64,000 nt of DNA from Gammaproteobacteria bacterium (GCA_016779485.1 JADHNN010000001.1:2681-66680), one strand, 5' to 3'. Shown: positions 47,159-57,750, counted from the first letter of the stretch. Made by a program: numbers and translations. Notes: generated from the sequence alone by a model not told the origin.

Positions 47159-47922
47159 TGGATATATTAAACATAATAATTCTGTCACTCATACAAGGTA
47201 TCACTGAGTTTTTACCAATATCAAGTAGCTCACATTTAATTCTAATTCCAATGCTTACTGAGTATCCTGATCAAGGCGTAATGTTTGATATTGCTCTTCA
47301 TACAGGTTCTTTGTTAGCAGTAATAATCTATTACAGAAAAGAAATTATAAACGCTTTAAAACTGTCTGATCATAGTAACAACTTAATTAGATTGCTTATA
47401 ATTGGTTCGATACCTCTTCCTATTGCAGGGCTATTAATAATTGATTTTGTTTCTTACAATTTAAGGGGAATTGAAGTTATAGGATTAATGACAATTAGTT
47501 TTGCATTATTGCTACTTATTGCAGATAGAAAATCTGAAAATAATAAGGATATTGCTGACATTTCATCCATAGCAATATTAACGATAGGTTTATATCAGAC
47601 ATTGGCTCTAGTTCCAGGCGTATCAAGGTCAGGCATTGTAATAACTGCAGCATTGTTATTAAATTACAAGAGAATTGATGCTATCAAAATTGCATTCTTG
47701 TTATCGATACCGGCAATCTTCATGGCTAGTGTTTATAATGTTTTTGAGGTAACAAGCAGTGAAAATATCATTATTTATAAAGAACATTTCATTGGTATGA
47801 TTTTGTCTTTATTATTCTCATATATAACAATTCATTTATTTATAACTACAATAAATAAAATTAGTTTCACCCCCTATATTATCTATAGGATTTTGTTGGG
47901 GACTATGCTTTTAGTTTTCTAA
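47158..47922 (+). CDS. uppP: Undecaprenyl-diphosphatase
   Basis: The BacA signature [14 protein letters not shown] is present. It has a GTG start. Confidence 0.9.
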
Positions 47923-48963
47923 AAAACCTTTGGTATGCTCGCTTGCAATATTATAATGCGCATCTTGAATTATTTGCTGTATTTCCTTTCCTGTTTTTTT
48001 CGAATCAACTTCGTTTAATTTATAAAGCTTAATTTTTTTTATAAGTTCTTTAAAAAAATCTGTATATTGAGTGTTACCGCTTATAATACTAAAAAAGTTT
48101 TCTAGTCTCTCAGATTTTCTAATATCAAGGTTCTTAATAATTAATAATAAGTGAGAAATGTTTTTTTCGTCAGGAATGTAATCAACTATCTCATCACTGC
48201 TTTTATTTAATAATTTTGCTAAATCTTTATATTCATTTGGTACTTTTAATTTAGTGCAAAAACTATCTAACTCTTTTATGCATTTGTGCATAAATAAAGA
48301 GATATTTAATAACTTATTTAAATTTTTATTAAAACAATCTGAGTTTTTATTATAACCCGGAATTATATAATCAATATTTAAATATTCTAAGTTTCTTAGA
48401 AACTCAAAGGGGTTATTAGATTTATAAAGCTCTAACCAAATCCTTTCTCCCGTAAGGTAATCTAATTCTCCACTATTCTTAATCTTATCTATTTCATAAA
48501 TAGTTTCTTTTGCTATGTCAAAACCACTTAAATTTGTTTTGAATCTTGCTGCTCTTAAAACTCTTAAAGGGTCCTCTGAAAATGCATTTGAAACATGCTT
48601 TAATTGTTTTTTTTTAACATCAAGTTGACCATTGAATGGGTCTATTAAATTTCCATTATCATCTTCGGCAATTGCATTAATTGTAAAATCTCTTCTTTCG
48701 AGATCCTCTTCAAGGCTGATGTTACTATTTGTATCAAAGTTAAAACCTGTATAACCATGTCCAGACTTTCTCTCTGTCCTAGCCAGTGCATATTCCTCAC
48801 CAGTTTTAGGATGAATAAATACTGGAAAATCTTTGCCAACTTGTTTGAAGCCCTTCGCTAACATTTCTTGAGGTGAAGAGCCAACAACAACCCAATCTTT
48901 CTCTTTGGGCTCTAGACCAAGAAGTTTATCTCTTACAGCACCGCCAACTAAATAGACTTTCAT
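47911..48963 (-). CDS. cca: tRNA nucleotidyltransferase (CCA-adding), short form without HD domain
   Basis: [17 protein letters not shown] is present. The poly(A) polymerase head domain is present, but the ORF is only 350 aa. Confidence 0.85.
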
Positions 48964-49889
48964 TATCTTCCTGATGTTTTTCTAAACACATCAAGTTTTT
49001 TATTGTTATTACATAAGTAACTAGGAACAATTTCTTCAATTGTAGATGAGCCTTTTAAACCATCTATTGATATATTATCTTTTTGTAATGATTTGAAATT
49101 ATCTAATGTAAATATATTACCGGGTAAACATGTAAAAAAGAATGCCTGAAGTTTAGACAAAGAATAATTCAATGGAATAATTAATCTTCGAATTTTCATA
49201 GTAGACTTGATGAAGTTAATAAGTTCTATAAATTTATAGTTTTTAGGCCCAGTAACATTTTTAATCATATTATCATGAATATTATTCAGAACTGCTTGTT
49301 CCACAAATCCAGCAAGATCCTTGACATATATAGGTGAGAACATCGAGCCAGGACAGGCTAGCGGGAATATAGGAAGAAACATTAGAAGATTCTTGAAGCG
49401 ATTGAAGAATTGATCTTTTTCTCCAAAAACAATTGACGGTCTTAATATTACAGTTTTAAATGAATCGGACGTGATACTTGATATGTATTTATCTGCATTC
49501 CCTTTAGATTGCAAGTAACGGCTAGCGCCATTAGGGTCTGCGTTCAGTGCACTAAGCTGAATAAACTTTTTAACTTTACTTTCTTTTGATTTATTAATAA
49601 TTTTTTTTAAAAATTCAAAATGTATATCATTAAACTTATTCTTTCGTGTTTCATTTAAAATGCCAATTGAATTAATTACAATATCTGAATCAATAATATG
49701 TTTATTGTAGCTTGATGGAATATTTGGGTCATACAAGAATATTTTAACGTTTTTAATGACTTTAATATGGTTACATTTTTGAGTATTTCTTGTAAGGAGA
49801 CGTAATTCTGTAAAGTGTTTCGATAGTTTGTAGACAATCTCAGTAGCTATAAAACCAGAACCACCAAAAATTGTTAGGGTGTTAGACAT
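48963..49889 (-). CDS. NAD(P)-dependent epimerase/dehydratase family protein (NDUFA9/YbjT-like)
   Basis: The N-terminal [13 protein letters not shown] Rossmann motif is present. Confidence 0.7.
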
Positions 49890-50407
49890 TACTTAATACA
49901 ATATGGTTGTATATCCCAGTTATTGTTCTCAATAAAAATTTGCATGTAACAGGGTCCTCCATCGTTATTTCTAGTATGCCCTGCCGCTCCTGGATTTACT
50001 ATCCATGGATTAGAACTTTTATCACATACCTGATTATGAGTATGCCCATAAATAATTAATTTAGATTCCGGATATGCAAATCTTAAGTCGTCATGTGATG
50101 GATGATGGCCAAATCTATCACCATGTTCCACTGTTACAATATCATCACCAATAGTAAACTGTTCAACTTTGTTAAGTTTAGAGATAATCTCCTTATCTGT
50201 TGGATCCGAAAATCTTTCTGGAACATCATTATTTCCTGCAACTGCAACAACATTATTGCTATAAGATTCAAGTTGTTTAAGTATAGCGGTATTCATAATA
50301 TCGCCTGCATGCACAATCATGTCTGAATTTTCTAAATGGGGGATTATACTATCGTCTATAATTCCGTGAGTATCTGAAATTACACTAATTTTCTTAATAT
50401 CTGACAT
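49889..50407 (-). CDS. Metallophosphoesterase (YfcE-like)
   Basis: The MPP motifs DTHG, GD, GNND and GHTH are present. Confidence 0.75.
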   Translation of the reverse strand: MSDIKKISVISDTHGIIDDSIIPHLENSDMIVHAGDIMNTAILKQLESYSNNVVAVAGNNDVPERFSDPTDKEIISKLNKVEQFTIGDDIVTVEHGDRFGHHPSHDDLRFAYPESKLIIYGHTHNQVCDKSSNPWIVNPGAAGHTRNNDGGPCYMQIFIENNNWDIQPYCIK

Positions 50408-50413
50408 TAGATA

Positions 50414-50767
50414 CTAAAAAATTGTACATCCATAAATTTTGATATCTTCATCTTGCATGCCAAGAACAAGTCTACCCAAATACTCACCAGGTACTGATTC
50501 ACTGAATTGCTTAAATAAAACTGTTACATATTCATCTCTTTTTAAACAACCAAGTGCACTGTAATCAGGTGCTAGTTTTGCAAGAATAGGACTATTTGCC
50601 CACTGTTTGCCAAGAGTGACTTCATCAGCACCCATTAGCATTTTTTTTGAAAAGTTCTTTGTAAACCCACCATAGTCTTTGTTGTTAGAAGTTCTAATCA
50701 AGTCTTCCCATAGTGGGTTTGCAATATCTATTATCTCTTGATCTGATAGTTCTAATAGATTAGCCAT
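50414..50767 (-). CDS. Hypothetical protein co-transcribed downstream of aprA
   Basis: The start is taken at MANLLELSD, 10 nt after the aprA stop. The protein is 117 aa, has no His and two Cys, and shows no recognisable family. Its amino-acid composition looks protein-like. Its stop is 6 nt from the next gene. Confidence 0.45.
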   Translation of the reverse strand: MANLLELSDQEIIDIANPLWEDLIRTSNNKDYGGFTKNFSKKMLMGADEVTLGKQWANSPILAKLAPDYSALGCLKRDEYVTVLFKQFSESVPGEYLGRLVLGMQDEDIKIYGCTIF

Positions 50768-50777
50768 TATCTCTATC

Positions 50778-52631
50778 TCAAGAAACTTTCTCTGTCTCTT
50801 CATCCACTATGTGGTAGAGAGGCGCTTTTTCACATGTAAATTTACCTGTTTTTGGATCTCTTCTTGAGACTGTTAGACAGTGCCAATTATCATCATCCAA
50901 TTTAAGGAAATCGCCACGGTAGTAGTAACCAGGCCAACGTGTTTCTTCACGGAACAGTGTATGTTCACAAACACATTGTGAAACAAGTGTTCTATGCTTA
51001 AGTTCCCATGCTCTCATTAATTGATGATAGTCTTCAGCACCAATTTTCTCTAAGTCTTCTGTTAATGTATCAAGCAACTGAAGTCCTCGTTTAAGCATAT
51101 TCCCGTTAGTCATATAGTTTGTACCGATACCACCTGCATAGTCATCCATTATTTTTTGGAGACGTTGTAGACCTTGTATAGGTAATAGATAGCTTGGGGA
51201 TACTGTCCCTGCTGTGATTTCATTACGACCTATAGTGTAGTTTTCGAGAGGTTTATATACTTCCTCTTTGTACTTCTCTATTTGACTGTCTGAAACCCTA
51301 ATACCGACTGCTTTTTGATCTTGTATGTATTTAACAGCTGCTTTAGCGCATAATCTCCCTTCGGTAAATGAACCAGATGAGAATGCATGTGCAGTTCCGC
51401 CAGCTGCATCTCCTGCAGCAAACAATCCATCAACTGTCATCATACGGTTATAACCCCAGAAATATTCTGGTGGTGAAAGATCTTCAGGACCACTGCACCA
51501 TGCACCTGAACATGTAGCATGTGAACCCATAACGTAGGGCTCAGATGTTGTAAGTTCTGGGTTTTGGTATTTAGGATCTATATCTTGAGCTGCCCATACA
51601 ACAGCTTGACCTACAGTCATACCCAAGAAGTTTTCCCAACCAATTTCCTCAAGATGAGGGTCTTGGAATGCTTCCATAGTTACCATATGAATTGGACCGC
51701 CACCTGCAATTGTCTCTTGAATAAAAGCGTGGTTTCTGAGACATGTTGGTGTTGGTACATGATCTAAATAATCGCCAACAATCGCTTTTGTATTGTCGTA
51801 CCATTTTTTCTCATAATTTTCACCAGCAGCATTTTGAGTGTATGTTTTTAGATGTAGAAAATATGCACCAACAGGTCCATAACCATCTTTAAATCTAGTC
51901 AATACAATTCTATTTTCCATTTGAGTCATTTTCGCACCAACAGCAATTGGTAGAGCATATGCTGAGCCATTACTCCATGGTGCATACCATGTACGTCCCA
52001 TTCCTTCACCAACAGATCTTGGTTTGAAGATGTGTGATGCACCACCAGCGGCACAAACTACAGCTTTTGCTCTAAAGACATGGAATTCACCTGTACGCAT
52101 GTTGAAACCACACGCGCCACCAATTCTATTTTCTTTAGCTTCATCCATGAGTAAATGAGTGACCATAACTCTGTTATAAATTTTATCAGCTGATTTTTTA
52201 GCAGCTTCGGCTACTATTGGTTTATAGCTCTCACCATGTATCATGATTTGCCATTTTCCTTCTCTTTGATAACGTCCAGTCTCTTTATTTCTCATGAGCG
52301 GCAATCCCCACTCTTCGAACATATGGACAGCAGAGTCTACGTGACGAGCCATATCATAAGCTAGATCTTCACGTACCATACCCATTAAGTCATTTCTTGC
52401 ATATCTAACATGGTCTTCTGGAGCATTTTCACCCCACTGCATACCCATGTAGCAATTAATAGCATATAGACCTTGTGCAACAGCTCCACTTCTATCGATA
52501 TTAGCCTTTTCAGCAACAATGATTTTCATGTCTTTACCCCAATATCTTGCTTCGAAAGCAGCGCCGGTACCGGCCATACCTCCGCCTACAACAAGAATAT
52601 CGCAATCTTCATAATGTGTTTTTCTAGCCAT
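50778..52631 (-). CDS. aprA: Adenylylsulfate (APS) reductase alpha subunit
   Basis: The FAD motif ILVVGGGMAGTGAA is present. The protein is 617 aa with AprA-typical regions, and aprB sits directly upstream with a 1-nt overlap. Confidence 0.92.
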   Translation of the reverse strand: MARKTHYEDCDILVVGGGMAGTGAAFEARYWGKDMKIIVAEKANIDRSGAVAQGLYAINCYMGMQWGENAPEDHVRYARNDLMGMVREDLAYDMARHVDSAVHMFEEWGLPLMRNKETGRYQREGKWQIMIHGESYKPIVAEAAKKSADKIYNRVMVTHLLMDEAKENRIGGACGFNMRTGEFHVFRAKAVVCAAGGASHIFKPRSVGEGMGRTWYAPWSNGSAYALPIAVGAKMTQMENRIVLTRFKDGYGPVGAYFLHLKTYTQNAAGENYEKKWYDNTKAIVGDYLDHVPTPTCLRNHAFIQETIAGGGPIHMVTMEAFQDPHLEEIGWENFLGMTVGQAVVWAAQDIDPKYQNPELTTSEPYVMGSHATCSGAWCSGPEDLSPPEYFWGYNRMMTVDGLFAAGDAAGGTAHAFSSGSFTEGRLCAKAAVKYIQDQKAVGIRVSDSQIEKYKEEVYKPLENYTIGRNEITAGTVSPSYLLPIQGLQRLQKIMDDYAGGIGTNYMTNGNMLKRGLQLLDTLTEDLEKIGAEDYHQLMRAWELKHRTLVSQCVCEHTLFREETRWPGYYYRGDFLKLDDDNWHCLTVSRRDPKTGKFTCEKAPLYHIVDEETEKVS

Positions 52632-53122
52632 TAGTAATAAACTCCTTGTTTTAGTTTACCGATTTTCTGCATTTCTGGTAAACCGTCATTTGCAGTAGCG
52701 ATTTCTCCAGTTTTTAAATATTTTGGTTCATTGTAAAGAAGCTCTCCATCATATACATCTTTGCTTGGTGATGGCTCAGCTGCTAATTCAGGAATATATT
52801 CACCCCATGGTTTAGTTGTTATTGGTGAGCAAAAGTTTTTTTCTGTTCCATTTCTAAACTTAATCTTCCATGAAATAGTCCCTTTTTCTTCTTCACGTAA
52901 TGCTCTTACACTATGGCCCAATGGTGAAAAGTCAGCGTATCCACGAGCATCAATAGCATTTTGATCACATGCTTTGACGCATGAATAACATTCCCAACAC
53001 ATGTTTGGTTCAATATTTACAGCACGTCTGAGTGTTTTATCGATGTGCATGATGTCTGATGGGCAAATATCTACACACATACCGCAACCGTCACATCTGG
53101 TCATATATACAAAAGTTGACAT
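52631..53122 (-). CDS. aprB: Adenylylsulfate reductase beta subunit
   Basis: Two [4Fe-4S] ferredoxin motifs are present (CDGCGMCVDICP and CWECYSCVKAC). The AprB-specific C-terminal tail is also present. Confidence 0.9.
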   Translation of the reverse strand: MSTFVYMTRCDGCGMCVDICPSDIMHIDKTLRRAVNIEPNMCWECYSCVKACDQNAIDARGYADFSPLGHSVRALREEEKGTISWKIKFRNGTEKNFCSPITTKPWGEYIPELAAEPSPSKDVYDGELLYNEPKYLKTGEIATANDGLPEMQKIGKLKQGVYY

Positions 53123-53151
53123 AATCTTATCTCCTTATTTCCTTATAGTTA

Positions 53152-53943
53152 TTAATAATTTTTTGGTGACTCACGTCTTATACCCAACCCAAATTGTTTT
53201 GGTTTATCAGCTGGTGAAGGTAAATTACTATTTGAACCATCAGCTTCAGCTAAATGTTTTTGTATTGCTGCTCCAGGTTTGTAGAACATGTGAGCAAATT
53301 TAGACCAATACACTCCCCCAAACAGAACAATGTTTGAAACAATAAATAATATTAAAAATAGACCACTTAAAGCTGATCCAGCTCCTTGTGTTATAGACCA
53401 TAGTAATGCGGTAGATTGTGAAGCTAATAGAGCTAGTACAAATAAATCAGCAAACATTACATGGTGCCAAGGATGTCCCTCAGCTGATACGTTAACTCTG
53501 ATTGAGGACCAGAACCAAAAACCACCTACACATGTCATAAGTGCCCCAATATGCCATAGCATAGGAAGCATTGCAGGTGCAGCTGATGATGGTGTTGAGT
53601 AACTAAATATCAACATAGTTGATGTTACCCAAAAAATTATTGTGCCATACATGCCTAGAAGGTGTGCTGCACGACGTTGAAATGTGCAAAATTCAGATGA
53701 TGTCATAATATCTGATGCAACAGTTTTTGATATTATTGCAATTTTTTCGCCTGATGATAATTCTCTTGTTGCAGATTTTTTTGCTTTTTGTGCGTTTTCA
53801 AAAAAGTATTTAACATTCTTTTTATGCATCATATCGAGTACTACTCCACCTATCACTAAAAGAACCATAGCAACTAAAAAGGCTTGCATAGCAAAAGATG
53901 GTATAAATGCACCTAAATCTGAAAATGGATTGTAAGCTAGCAT
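53152..53943 (-). CDS. aprM: APS reductase membrane anchor AprM
   Basis: A 263-aa polytopic membrane protein 30 nt upstream of aprB. This is the arrangement seen in sulfur-oxidiser and SAR11-type sat-aprMBA clusters, which have AprM instead of QmoABC. Confidence 0.65.
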   Translation of the reverse strand: MLAYNPFSDLGAFIPSFAMQAFLVAMVLLVIGGVVLDMMHKKNVKYFFENAQKAKKSATRELSSGEKIAIISKTVASDIMTSSEFCTFQRRAAHLLGMYGTIIFWVTSTMLIFSYSTPSSAAPAMLPMLWHIGALMTCVGGFWFWSSIRVNVSAEGHPWHHVMFADLFVLALLASQSTALLWSITQGAGSALSGLFLILFIVSNIVLFGGVYWSKFAHMFYKPGAAIQKHLAEADGSNSNLPSPADKPKQFGLGIRRESPKNY

Positions 53944-54079
53944 GTTTTCTCCCTATTCTTAATAAAATCTAGTATCTTAGATACTACCCGATGAACATTA
54001 TAGCCAAAATTTAGAATATTAGGAATTAATTATTAACTTAATTTCACTTATTTCTTCACCCTATTTTTTAAGGTTTTTC

Positions 54080-55282
54080 TTAGCTTTTTTGCTGATAATA
54101 AGCCATCAAAATCTCAGCAACCTCTTTTCTCGCAAATTCAGGAGGTAAATCTTGACCCGCAGCAAGCATTTCTCTAACTTTGGTACCAGATAGAAGAACA
54201 AAATCTTCTTTACTATGGTCTTTAGCATCTCTCATCATGACTACTTCATTTAGTTTTTTTGAGTAAGCTGTGTGATCGGCCTTAAATATCTCTATTTTCA
54301 ATGAATCTTTAACAACATCTTGATCGAAAATATCTTGCGCACCAAAAGGCTCGTAATAATCGCCAACACCAGCATGATCACGACCTACAATCAAATGTGT
54401 GCATCCTGCATTCTGTCTAAAAACTGCATGGAGTAAAGCCTCTCTCGGTCCAGCATACATCATGTCAAAACCAAAGCCTGAAATAATCGCTGTATTCTCT
54501 GGAAAATAAATTTCAACCATTTTTCTAATTGCTGCATCCCTTACATCACCTGGTATATCTCCTTCTTTCAATTTGCCAAGTGTCATATGTATGAGGACTC
54601 CATCTGCCTCCAGTCTATCAAGTGCCATTTTGCATAACTCTTCATGAGCTCTGTGCATAGGATTCCTTGTTTGAAAGGCAACGGTTTTTGACCATCCAGC
54701 TTTGGTAAGCATTTCTCTTATTTGAGGAGCTGTAGCAAATGTTTCAGGGAAATCTGAAGGGAAATAACTATAGTTTAATACTTCTATGGACCCAGAAATT
54801 ATGTATCTTCCTTGACCTTTAAAGGTTTTCACACCAGGATGATTGTTATCATTGGTGCCAAATACATTGGTCACAATAACGTCTATATCCTCATCACTAA
54901 GTTTTTCTACATTCTCGACTCGTTGTATGGCTATGACTGGGTTTCCATCAACGTTAGGATCTTTAAGTGCGATTTCTTCACCATGTGTGTAATCAAGAGA
55001 ATTAGCATCAGTAGTAAGGTTCACAATAGGAACAGGCCAAAATAAATTATCTAAAGTAAGCATATCTTTTGAAACTCTTAGAGCTTCCTCTTTATTCATA
55101 TATCCTGTTAGAGGATTGAAATATCCTGCACCCAGCATAACTGCATTAGCGGCAGCTGCTGATGATATTTCTAATGTTCGCATTTCAGCTGCTGCTGATA
55201 GCATTGACGCACGAGCTAGCTCGTCTTCAATATAAAGAGTGTTTAATTCGTTTGAGCCATGCGGCATTATCAGATTAGTCAT
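54080..55282 (-). CDS. sat: Sulfate adenylyltransferase (ATP sulfurylase), dissimilatory type
   Basis: The motifs QTRNPMHRAHE and GRDHAGVG are present. The protein is 400 aa and has no APS-kinase domain. Confidence 0.93.
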   Translation of the reverse strand: MTNLIMPHGSNELNTLYIEDELARASMLSAAAEMRTLEISSAAAANAVMLGAGYFNPLTGYMNKEEALRVSKDMLTLDNLFWPVPIVNLTTDANSLDYTHGEEIALKDPNVDGNPVIAIQRVENVEKLSDEDIDVIVTNVFGTNDNNHPGVKTFKGQGRYIISGSIEVLNYSYFPSDFPETFATAPQIREMLTKAGWSKTVAFQTRNPMHRAHEELCKMALDRLEADGVLIHMTLGKLKEGDIPGDVRDAAIRKMVEIYFPENTAIISGFGFDMMYAGPREALLHAVFRQNAGCTHLIVGRDHAGVGDYYEPFGAQDIFDQDVVKDSLKIEIFKADHTAYSKKLNEVVMMRDAKDHSKEDFVLLSGTKVREMLAAGQDLPPEFARKEVAEILMAYYQQKS

Positions 55283-55394: not shown

Positions 55395-57311
55395 ATGAAA
55401 GAGATGTTAGAGATAAGGGAGATTTGTAGATCTCCTAGGCAGTTGTTTGAGAGCAAATCATTTAGTAGGTATCTAGAATTATATAAAAAAGAATTTATTG
55501 CTGAACTAAGAAAGAGACAAGATAAGGACTTAAAAGAGGAGCTTCAACATAGGATAAAATTCATTGAAAACCTTAAACCTAATGACTACTTAGATATCCT
55601 AAAAGGTGTCACACCTTTTTCTGGAGACTTATTGAGAGATTACCGTGCAAATATTCAATTTCTTGATGGAGCATTCCACCATTATAGAACAAAGACATAC
55701 GCTAGGTTGATATTGCCGTTAGACAAGTCATCAGCCAATGACAATGCAGAATCCACAAAAGATAACATTTCAAATAAAGCAGATAAATTGTCAGATTTAA
55801 TACTAGAGACAAGAAGATTACTTTTAGTAAAAGTAGGACTTGGTTCAGGAATTAGACGATCTCAAGGGTTAGAGTGTCATCCAAATGTTGCTGTTGGGGA
55901 AATTAGTGGTGAATCCATCATGCTTCCTGATGACTACTCAATGCTCAAAAAAGTATCTGTAACATCAACTGCTGATATGAGAACAGGAGTTTACTACACA
56001 ACACATTCAAATAAGCGTGCGTTCCCATTTTTTGAATTAAGTCATAACCCATTTAAGAAAGAACAATTTAAACATGACGAATATATTGCGATCCCCTTTG
56101 AAATTGGAGCATGGAATATTCTATGTTACATTCATAAAACACCTGGATATATAGAAATTGAGCCTGGCCTGTTAAATCTATTTCCTTACTCTAAAACTAA
56201 AAATATTACTGACAAGCAAGTTGATGGTATCTTTATACTAGGTTGCCCTAACTCAGGTATGGATGATCTTGGTTATTATCATGATATGAAAAACAACTTG
56301 TTAGTTGGAGTGATTCCTGGATTAGATGATTGTCAATATTTTGGTTATGGAAAAAAACCTATGCTTACTTTACATAATGTTTTATGTATATTAAAAGGTA
56401 ACCTTCCTCTTCATTGTGGAGCTACAAGATATGTAGTTCGTTTTGATGAAAAAACTAATGAACCTTATATTTTTGATTCTCTCATTAAAGCTGATGATAT
56501 GGGAAGAGCAATATTAGAAAAAAATTCTCAAGGCAAAGAAGTACCGTTTTTCTATGGTACTGAAACTGGAGCTTTTGCATGTCTTGATGGTTTTAGTGAA
56601 CATGCAAAAATGCAAATGGAAGGAAGAGAAATAGGTTACAACAAACATTCTGGAACAAATGCAAGACAAATTGTTCCTGTTACTGACTACTCTGAAATAG
56701 CAACAGGTTCAGAATTAGATATACTTTTATATTTAAATAATTATGAAGTAATTCCAGAGGGTGAATCATGTATGAAAGCAAATATGAACCCAGCTGAAGC
56801 TTTAGAACATTTCAGAAAAGGAGCGAGGGTTGCCGCAGGAAGTACACAAACGCATCGAGGTGACGTTGAAATAAGCTATTGGGCAAATCCATTCCCACTT
56901 CTTAAAGACAATGATTGGAAACCGCTACCAGAGCATAAACATCTCTGTGAAAAATTTGAAAAGATTGAGAAACGGTTTTTTGATAATTTTAAAACCCGTG
57001 TAGAAAAAGGAGAGATGAAGATAGGTGTGGCACATAGTATGTTAATGGCTGGAGTCTATAAAGAAAGTACAGACCAAGTGTTGAGTGATGCCGGCTTTAA
57101 TGACAGAGACTTGGTTGAACATCATGGACCAGAAAGGGCTGCACATGACATGATTGAACTTATCAAAGAAACAGCAATTGATAAAAGAAAAAGAATAGGT
57201 GGTAATTTAAAAGAAGTGGACATTACAATCGCAACAATTGGTGACAGTAGAACAGGTAAATCAGAAATGGCCGAAAAAATGGATGGTATACTCAATATGA
57301 GTTTGATTTGA
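55395..57311 (+). CDS. Large conserved hypothetical protein (638 aa), divergent from sat
   Basis: A long uninterrupted ORF with protein-like composition and many Cys and His residues. I could recognise no family signature. Its stop is 1 nt from the convergent FKBP gene. Confidence 0.5.
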   Translation: MKEMLEIREICRSPRQLFESKSFSRYLELYKKEFIAELRKRQDKDLKEELQHRIKFIENLKPNDYLDILKGVTPFSGDLLRDYRANIQFLDGAFHHYRTKTYARLILPLDKSSANDNAESTKDNISNKADKLSDLILETRRLLLVKVGLGSGIRRSQGLECHPNVAVGEISGESIMLPDDYSMLKKVSVTSTADMRTGVYYTTHSNKRAFPFFELSHNPFKKEQFKHDEYIAIPFEIGAWNILCYIHKTPGYIEIEPGLLNLFPYSKTKNITDKQVDGIFILGCPNSGMDDLGYYHDMKNNLLVGVIPGLDDCQYFGYGKKPMLTLHNVLCILKGNLPLHCGATRYVVRFDEKTNEPYIFDSLIKADDMGRAILEKNSQGKEVPFFYGTETGAFACLDGFSEHAKMQMEGREIGYNKHSGTNARQIVPVTDYSEIATGSELDILLYLNNYEVIPEGESCMKANMNPAEALEHFRKGARVAAGSTQTHRGDVEISYWANPFPLLKDNDWKPLPEHKHLCEKFEKIEKRFFDNFKTRVEKGEMKIGVAHSMLMAGVYKESTDQVLSDAGFNDRDLVEHHGPERAAHDMIELIKETAIDKRKRIGGNLKEVDITIATIGDSRTGKSEMAEKMDGILNMSLI

Positions 57312-57312
57312 G

Positions 57313-57750
57313 TTAGGCTTTTACTGCTTCTGTTTCTGCTACATCCGTAATTTTTATTTTATAAATCAATATCTTTCCTGAAAAAGGGTGATTTCCATCA
57401 AATGTAATATTATCACCTTCAATTTTTGTAACATGAAACTTTCTCTTCTGACCTTTTTCATTTTTAAAATCAATTTGCATGCCTATTTTAGAATATTCTT
57501 TTGGTACATTACTGACAGAATCTACAAAGATTAGACTATTATCAATTTCACCAAATCCTAGTTCTGGGCTTACTTCGATGGTTAATTCATCCCCTGCTTC
57601 TTTTCCATTAAGGGATTTTTCAACGATTGGTAATAGATTTGTTTCTTTTCCATAGATAAAACTAACTGGAGTATCTACATTTTCTAAGAGCTCGCTTCCT
57701 TCATGGATTGTATATATCATGCTTACTAATTTTTGACTTGATATTTTCAT
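57313..57750 (-). CDS. FKBP-type peptidyl-prolyl cis-trans isomerase (SlpA/FkpB-like)
   Basis: GDNITFDGNHPFSGKILIYKIKI resembles the SlyD/FkpB motif DGNHPLAGK. Confidence 0.75.
   Translation of the reverse strand: MKISSQKLVSMIYTIHEGSELLENVDTPVSFIYGKETNLLPIVEKSLNGKEAGDELTIEVSPELGFGEIDNSLIFVDSVSNVPKEYSKIGMQIDFKNEKGQKRKFHVTKIEGDNITFDGNHPFSGKILIYKIKITDVAETEAVKA

Follow-up and report, generated by a model that had tools for sequence, protein, structure and literature searches.

A sat-aprMBA gene cluster of a streamlined marine gammaproteobacterium and orfX, an apparently undescribed companion gene of the AprM-type APS reductase

The DNA analysed here is a stretch of 64,000 nt from a genome assembly of a Gammaproteobacteria bacterium (GCA_016779485.1 JADHNN010000001.1:2681-66680). 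The whole stretch is referred to as the window, and all coordinates are window positions. Between 47911 and 55282 its minus strand carries eight consecutive open reading frames (ORFs): sat, aprM, aprB, aprA, a small ORF termed orfX, a gene for a YfcE-type metallophosphoesterase (MPP), an SDR gene and cca (Table 1). This agrees with the co-directional string from sat to cca which had been reported in a preliminary description of the same DNA. The spacing of 0 to 10 nt given there is correct from aprB onward (−1 to 10 nt), with 1-nt overlaps of aprB with aprA, of the MPP gene with the SDR gene and of the SDR gene with cca, and with gaps of 10 nt between aprA and orfX and of 6 nt between orfX and the MPP gene. 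It does not hold, however, for sat and aprM, which are 136 nt apart, nor for aprM and aprB (29 nt). The window is about 94% coding and has a GC content of about 31%; the genes outside the string are housekeeping genes. Proteins identical or near-identical to those of the window are encoded on many marine metagenome contigs as well as in gammaproteobacterial metagenome-assembled genomes (MAGs) and single-amplified genomes (AG-390-N19, LRMED-302, GCA_016777025.1). The earlier view of the host as a streamlined, low-GC gammaproteobacterium is supported, and the organism is a marine, uncultured one. The preliminary description had, however, passed over orfX as an unknown ORF. Yet this is the only gene downstream of aprA which is both tightly and widely linked to aprMBA, and sequence comparison suggests that it is a conserved and apparently undescribed companion of the AprM-type adenosine 5′-phosphosulfate (APS) reductase.

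The APS reductase itself bears the marks of the enzyme from sulfur-oxidising bacteria (SOB). AprB contains eight cysteines in two CxxCxxCxxxC-type motifs (Cys 10/13/16/20 and 42/45/48/52). Its alignment to the proteins of A. fulgidus (1JNR_B) and D. gigas (3GYX_B) revealed a deletion of the five-residue charged loop after Cys13 and a two-residue acidic (EE) insertion in a beta-sheet segment (ALREEEKGTISW vs 'PMRGT--SDIMW'). Both are described as traits of SOB Apr lineage I (Meyer & Kuever; PMC2211403), which also includes the enzymes of Pelagibacter and of Ruthia, a symbiont of the SUP05 clade (PMC2211403). Outside the clade to which the window belongs, AprA shares 82–89% identity with its counterparts from SAR11, MarineAlpha5 and Thioglobus/SUP05 loci and from further loci of marine Gammaproteobacteria (82–86% for Pelagibacteraceae, 82–84% for Thioglobus/SUP05 loci). 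As an independent sample, 80 AprA loci were collected by applying a universal motif pattern to metagenomes. By distance clustering, which is not a rooted likelihood tree and was done without A. vinosum and Thiobacillus references, the AprA of the window groups with all aprM-bearing loci of this sample (70–88% identity) and apart from a group of 42–49% identity, whose members never have aprM.

The 263-aa ORF upstream of aprB is assigned to aprM because it encodes four hydrophobic segments above threshold, shows weak, sub-threshold NCBIfam matches to the membrane part of QmoC (2.7e-7) and to TcuB, and shares 56–68% identity with the gene that precedes aprBA in SAR11 and Thioglobus loci. A fifth, weaker hydrophobic segment lies around residues 125–147, and no curated Pfam or NCBIfam model matched the protein above its cut-off. 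Two histidines, H94 and H218, occur in all of the 105 homologues (100%), and two others, H40 (95%) and H131 (85%), in most of them, which, together with the distant similarity to QmoC, would be compatible with haem b binding. In every lineage-I locus with enough sequence on that side, aprBA is preceded by an aprM gene, which is found at this place in the window as well. No dsr, sox or qmo/HdrA-like genes were found among the Pfam-annotated gene calls, which cover nearly the whole window. Thus, the earlier statements that AprM takes the place of QmoABC and that dsr and sox genes are not visible in the window both stand.

The best solved relatives of Sat are the enzymes of a Riftia symbiont (1JHD, 1e-156) and of A. 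vinosum (4DNX, 2.5e-153), with the next match following at 2e-64. Sat carries the RNP and GRD motifs. No APS-kinase domain was found in the domain search, and the model for bifunctional sulfurylases reached a score of only 245 (cut-off 669), with the sulfurylase part alone being covered. This is a dissimilatory ATP sulfurylase of the sulfur-oxidiser type, and it has no fused kinase, as previously described. The grouping of AprA, both traits of AprB, the presence of aprM and the nature of Sat support a lineage-I APS reductase with AprM as its membrane partner and are in line with the reverse-acting, oxidative enzyme that had been proposed before. That sulfite is indeed oxidised in vivo is inferred from this lineage and the gene content.

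The linkage of orfX to these genes was followed in 80 loci from 80 species, out of at least 561 stretches encoding a relative of orfX. In all 80 loci aprM-aprB-aprA lies immediately upstream of orfX, with aprA adjoining on the same strand (median gap of 11.5 nt in 56 measurable loci), and the genes downstream of orfX vary between lineages, even within SAR11. Among the metagenome loci, a homologue of orfX directly follows aprA in 28 of the 36 lineage-I loci with enough downstream sequence, and in none of the 23 loci from lineage II or sulfate-reducing prokaryotes (SRP). The presence of orfX maps cleanly onto the subclades of AprA. Pelagic (20/20) and Gallionellaceae-like loci (16/16) are positive, and two smaller lineage-I clades (2 and 5–6 loci) are negative, the latter of them with sat directly after aprA. 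The positive loci of high GC content (0.40–0.67) have cluster members from Gallionella, Gallionellaceae and Burkholderiales MAGs. Furthermore, the pairwise distances between orfX sequences are correlated with the corresponding distances for AprA, AprB and AprM (r = 0.79–0.87; the observed value was reached in 0 of 999 permutations). Neither the open full-text literature searched nor the supplement of a SAR11 sulfur-limitation proteome mentions a conserved gene after aprA, with subscription journals (e.g., Meyer & Kuever 2007) lying outside this search. Carriage of the cassette by phages was considered and rejected, as a scan of viral contigs with an orfX profile yielded one partial match at a contig end.

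Table 1. Genes and other features of the sat-to-cca region and its flank.
Feature	Position	Strand	Description
sat	54080-55282	-	400 aa; TIGR00339 378.7 bits (cut-off 323); only PUA_2 and ATP-sulfurylase domains
sat-aprM spacer	53944-54079	-	conserved; two hairpins and TATAAT
aprM	53152-53943	-	263 aa; membrane anchor of lineage-I APS reductase; without Pfam family
aprB	52631-53122	-	163 aa; iron-sulfur subunit; TIGR02060 188.1 bits (cut-off 135.65)
aprA	50778-52631	-	617 aa; FAD subunit; TIGR02061 992.7 bits (cut-off 641.75)
orfX	50414-50767	-	117 aa; soluble NTF2-like protein; without described family
YfcE-family metallophosphoesterase	49889-50407	-	172 aa; TIGR00040 85.3 bits (cut-off 56.25); Metallophos_2
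SDR-like NAD(P)-binding protein	48963-49889	-	308 aa; NAD_binding_10 6e-13
cca, tRNA nucleotidyltransferase	47911-48963	-	350 aa; PolyA_pol head domain
p638	55395-57311	+	638 aa; conserved; divergent from sat
SlyD-like FKBP-type prolyl isomerase/chaperone	57313-57750	-	145 aa; 2.7e-14 to Thermus SlyD 4ODM

The start of orfX at 50767 (MANLL) is the one used by its homologues and by five of six independent gene calls; an alternative ATG at 50803 would overlap aprA. The protein matched no Pfam or NCBIfam model even at E ≤ 10, and its relatives are labelled in the sources as 'hypothetical protein' or, automatically, as 'SnoaL-like'. It does not belong to any of the described NTF2-like sequence families with which it was compared (SnoaL, DUF4440, Tim44 and others). 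Its predicted structure nevertheless shows the alpha+beta cone of the NTF2-like superfamily, and the structures most similar to it are scaffold or tether domains that are associated with membranes (TraM, DotI/IcmL, VirB8-like, Tim44). Across 106 apr-linked sequences, 30 positions are at least 95% conserved, including the LGRLVLG strand, N28, Y32, Q55, R77, Q87, S89 and R99. The most conserved stretch, residues 27–56, is also the least confidently modelled one, as would be expected of an interface. A charge complementarity between orfX and the acidic insertion of AprB was dropped, as the isoelectric points of the homologues range from 4.7 to 9.3 and show no consistent charge. It was further observed that the 90%-identity cluster in which the orfX of the window is placed has the 172-aa phosphoesterase as its representative and as its listed members; this is probably an artefact of gene calls fused across the 6-nt junction between orfX and the MPP gene.

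Outside the pelagic clades, the gene next after orfX usually encodes a SlyD-like protein. The SlyD-like protein of the window matches T. thermophilus SlyD over residues 1–140; it gave no Pfam match at E ≤ 0.001 and no His-rich tail was found. In 19 lineage-I metagenome loci (e.g., L103, L106, L108, L129) and in two Thioglobus loci (L064, L094), orfX is immediately followed by a homologue of this slyD gene in the same orientation. Wherever AprA could be classified, the 19 metagenome loci belong to the high-GC, Gallionellaceae-like AprA clade. Only one of 34 lineage-II loci has slyD nearby. In the window, slyD is found about 4.5 kb away from orfX, beyond sat and p638, and is taken to belong to the wider conserved surroundings of apr.

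From these observations it appears rather probable that the region encodes an indirect, APS-dependent pathway of sulfite oxidation in a streamlined marine gammaproteobacterium, with sat and aprM-aprB-aprA-orfX as its core and with orfX helping to assemble or tether AprBA at AprM. Following established knowledge of the enzyme families, AprA would add sulfite to AMP, which yields APS and two electrons. The electrons would be passed from the iron-sulfur clusters of AprB via AprM to the quinone pool, and Sat would convert APS and pyrophosphate to ATP and sulfate. OrfX would act on the enzyme complex, either in the assembly of AprBA or in its tethering at AprM. Such a role is suggested by several features of orfX: it is restricted to the AprM type, co-varies with the subunits, resembles scaffold domains in structure, contains a conserved but poorly ordered loop and is paired with a chaperone gene. 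In two large clades of lineage I, a pelagic one (SAR11, SUP05 and the lineage of the window) and a Gallionellaceae/Burkholderiales-like one, the gene has been passed on by descent and by transfer along with aprMBA. A further, more tentative idea, to which we would give somewhat less than an even chance, is that orfX and the SlyD-like chaperone together form an unrecognised component of AprM-type APS reductases, needed for AprBA assembly or for docking of AprBA onto AprM.

Several observations weigh against this picture. Eight of the 36 lineage-I metagenome loci, which fall into two subclades, have aprMBA without an adjacent orfX; in these organisms orfX may be dispensable or encoded elsewhere. 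Distant relatives of orfX (33–38% identity) occur in unrelated contexts, namely in Thalassomonas, in a Saccharospirillaceae MAG and on two short contigs, and are not near apr genes. Because of these relatives the orfX family as a whole is not specific for apr, and the association applies only to subfamilies which are more than about 55% identical. The 64 kb examined do not reveal where the organism's sulfite comes from, the catalytic direction is read solely from phylogeny and gene content, and a physical contact of orfX with AprBA or AprM is a prediction. Moreover, the invariant polar residues of orfX (N28, Y32, Q55, R77, Q87, S89 and R99) would fit a ligand pocket equally well. This last point leads to the idea that orfX is a binder of small molecules or an enzyme, whose NTF2/SnoaL-like cone would take up a ligand (sulfite, AMP or APS) and pass it to AprA, or which would catalyse a side reaction. 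As the closest structural neighbours of orfX are scaffold and tether domains and its conserved loop resembles an interface, we regard such a function as unlikely, albeit worth considering.

It appears less likely still that orfX, slyD and the MPP gene are functionally unrelated to the APS reductase and merely travel as passengers of the aprMBA cassette. The block has moved between classes, as seen from the 82–89% identity of AprA between Alpha- and Gammaproteobacteria, and the lineage-I clades without orfX as well as the orfX paralogues in unrelated contexts would be understandable if the gene were a passenger. However, orfX was kept in 80 of 80 genome loci and 28 of 36 metagenome loci over three proteobacterial classes while every other flanking gene turns over, it is missing from all 23 lineage-II/SRP loci, and its 30 nearly invariant positions (106 sequences) point to strong constraint. 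In addition, the streamlined genomes of SAR11 seldom keep useless genes.

A different question is whether the eight genes from sat to cca form one functional operon, in which nucleotide by-products of the APS pathway would be handled by the phosphoesterase, the SDR and the cca product. The preliminary description had treated the string as one unit and had raised such by-products for the phosphoesterase and the SDR, an epimerase-like protein. In accordance with this, the terminator scan found no terminator-like site on the minus strand within the string, and the gaps from aprA to cca are only −1 to 10 nt wide. However, unrelated genes all over the window are packed just as tightly. Of the 34 co-directional pairs of neighbours that lie outside the string, 22 are likewise no more than 10 nt apart (median 0), and since this spacing is so common the packing of the string is weak evidence of a unit. 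SDR and cca adjoin apr genes only in the closest relatives: the SDR gene is near apr in 11 of 80 loci, in three of them (L025/27/29) upstream and on the opposite strand, and cca is beside apr in 8 of 80, which are the eight closest relatives. As they occur in so few loci, both the SDR gene and cca, a housekeeping gene, are lineage-specific neighbours which sit in the string only through the compactness of the genome. The SDR gene is probably co-transcribed, with no evidence linking it to apr, and the epimerase part of the earlier proposal found no support. We therefore consider a functional operon of all eight genes to be very unlikely.

The spacer between sat and aprM also speaks against a single unit. 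It has a mean column identity of 87% among six relatives and contains an invariant, −10-like TATAAT at 54002-53997. A small hairpin lies right past the stop codon of sat (54074-54058) and a second one (53986-53970) about 27 nt before the ATG of aprM, with the pairing of the latter being kept through compensatory changes (U-A to C-G, A-U to U-A). Because of the invariant TATAAT and the covarying hairpin, the spacer probably includes an internal promoter and an element of the 5′ untranslated region, which would provide a separate start for aprM onward. In the window as a whole, the promoter scan returned fewer promoter-like matches than expected from shuffled sequence. The gene sat is beside apr in 16 of the 80 genome loci.

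The phosphoesterase part of the earlier proposal fared better than the epimerase part, as MPP genes recur near apr or sat in several architectures, which also favours the eight-gene operon to some extent. The YfcE-like gene, whose product shows the motifs DTH, GD, GNND and GHTH, adjoins apr genes in 23 of the 80 genome loci, in two orientations and exclusively in Gammaproteobacteria. It directly follows orfX in the window and is found inverted after slyD in Thioglobus, and in high-GC loci a 278-aa MPP gene is located after sat. The latter encodes a calcineurin-like phosphoesterase (PF00149, 2.9e-16; L104 4290-5126) and follows either sat or, by about 1.2 kb, aprA. It was also seen in the high-GC loci L136, L137, L161, L175, L134 and L170, two of which are lineage-II, and is unrelated to the YfcE-like gene, which makes it the second MPP type found with apr/sat. 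On the other hand, SAR11 loci contain no MPP gene within 8 kb, and the identity of the MPPs between clades (39–60%) tracks the host and not the apr cassette. It is thus possible that the YfcE-like phosphoesterase is an accessory of the apr system.

That the enzymes run reductively, for assimilation or respiration of sulfate, appears highly improbable. Both AprBA and Sat can work in either direction, and homology modelling has revealed nothing in the structure that would determine which one (PMC2211403). Yet the placement in lineage I, the presence of AprM and not of QmoABC, a Sat whose nearest relatives are enzymes of sulfur oxidisers, the lack of a sulfite reductase in the window and the nearly identical SAR11 enzyme in organisms without assimilatory sulfate reduction (PMC5069961) all speak against a reductive function.

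Some further features of the region deserve mention. The product of cca is short and shows its head domain only; NCBIfam CCA models matched below their cut-offs, and the domain search found no HD phosphohydrolase domain. The genes cca and uppP (BacA) are convergent, with their 3′ ends overlapping by 12 nt (47911-47922). No Pfam, NCBIfam or PDB sequence match was obtained for p638, a profile search of the PDB included. None of its 391 homologues has a functional name, and weak PEPCK/HprK-like fold matches were obtained on a poor AlphaFold2 (AF2) model. The gene is next to sat in four gammaproteobacterial clades, which is not the case for a 55%-identical homologue. Finally, the apr genes (50001-54000) have a GC content of 0.375, compared with 0.27–0.31 in their flanks. 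Along with the high identity of AprA across Alpha- and Gammaproteobacteria (82–89%), this is in keeping with strong constraint, with a lateral transfer of the cassette among pelagic lineages, or with both.

The sat-aprMBA pathway as such is textbook knowledge, to which one more marine gammaproteobacterial case adds little. AprM-type APS reductases are, however, present in some of the most abundant bacteria of the ocean (SAR11, SUP05), and papers from 2008 to 2013 described the link between AprBA and the membrane as unknown. In orfX there is now a testable candidate for a missing accessory factor of this enzyme. If orfX and the SlyD-like protein indeed formed a component of it, part of a long-standing gap in the membrane coupling of lineage-I APS reductases from SAR11, SUP05 and betaproteobacterial sulfur oxidisers would be filled. 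Being small, strongly conserved, confined to the AprM-type enzyme and unnamed in the databases examined, orfX could in addition serve as a marker for lineage-I apr loci in metagenomes.

Among known systems, the sat-aprMBA cluster of A. vinosum (Alvin_1118-1121), whose genes are co-transcribed (PMC3779200), resembles the window in the order sat-aprM-aprB-aprA, in the structural type of Sat (4DNX, 2.5e-153), in the partner AprM and in its oxidative role (PMC3779200). The window differs from it by the conserved 136-nt spacer with a −10-like box between sat and aprM and by orfX as a fifth gene after aprA; no such gene is mentioned in PMC3779200, the comparison being based on that paper alone. The order aprM-aprB-aprA-orfX is shared with SAR11 (Pelagibacter), with identities of 82–86% for AprA, 67–77% for AprB, 56–68% for AprM and 56–64% for orfX. 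In contrast to the window, SAR11 loci have no sat nearby and no MPP, SDR or cca neighbours. The SAR11 genes have been interpreted as a means of sulfite detoxification, in organisms which lack sat near apr as well as assimilatory sulfate reduction (PMC5069961). In SAR11-type loci (L042 7728-12549, L021 9735-10823, L101, L114, L125, L152, L155, L167, L174) aprMBA-orfX is followed by a gene of the TauE/SafE sulfite-exporter family (4.7e-43). Many of these loci have a SuyB-like (GD_AH) gene close by, SuyAB-like genes being noted in several SAR11 loci, and L042 also contains a 593-aa ORF which looks Xsc-like by eye only. Judged by their sequences, these neighbours would fit with sulfite being released from sulfonates.

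The loci of SUP05/Ca. Thioglobus (L064, L094) share sat-aprM-aprB-aprA-orfX with the window, after which come genes for a SlyD-like protein and an MPP. They differ in that their Sat is only 43–44% identical to that of the window, slyD directly follows orfX, the MPP gene is inverted and p638 is missing. The AprBA-QmoABC systems of sulfate reducers, Chlorobi and lineage-II oxidisers use the same catalytic heterodimer; the AprA of the window is 42–49% identical to that of aprM-less metagenome loci and matches the solved A. fulgidus enzyme at E ~1e-195. These systems, however, have neither aprM nor orfX (0/23), and their AprB has a KGxD/EK/R-type loop, which is absent from the AprB of the window. 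With the NTF2-like tether domains (TraM of pIP501, DotI/IcmL, VirB8-like proteins and the C-terminal domain of Tim44), orfX has only 6–13% identity, and, unlike these, it has no membrane segment and no Pfam membership. Its likeness to them, which is based on a predicted structure, may be taken as a functional lead but not as a test. Overall, the cluster is of the known sat-aprMBA kind, found in another marine gammaproteobacterium, and what is new about it is orfX, a widely conserved candidate accessory gene.

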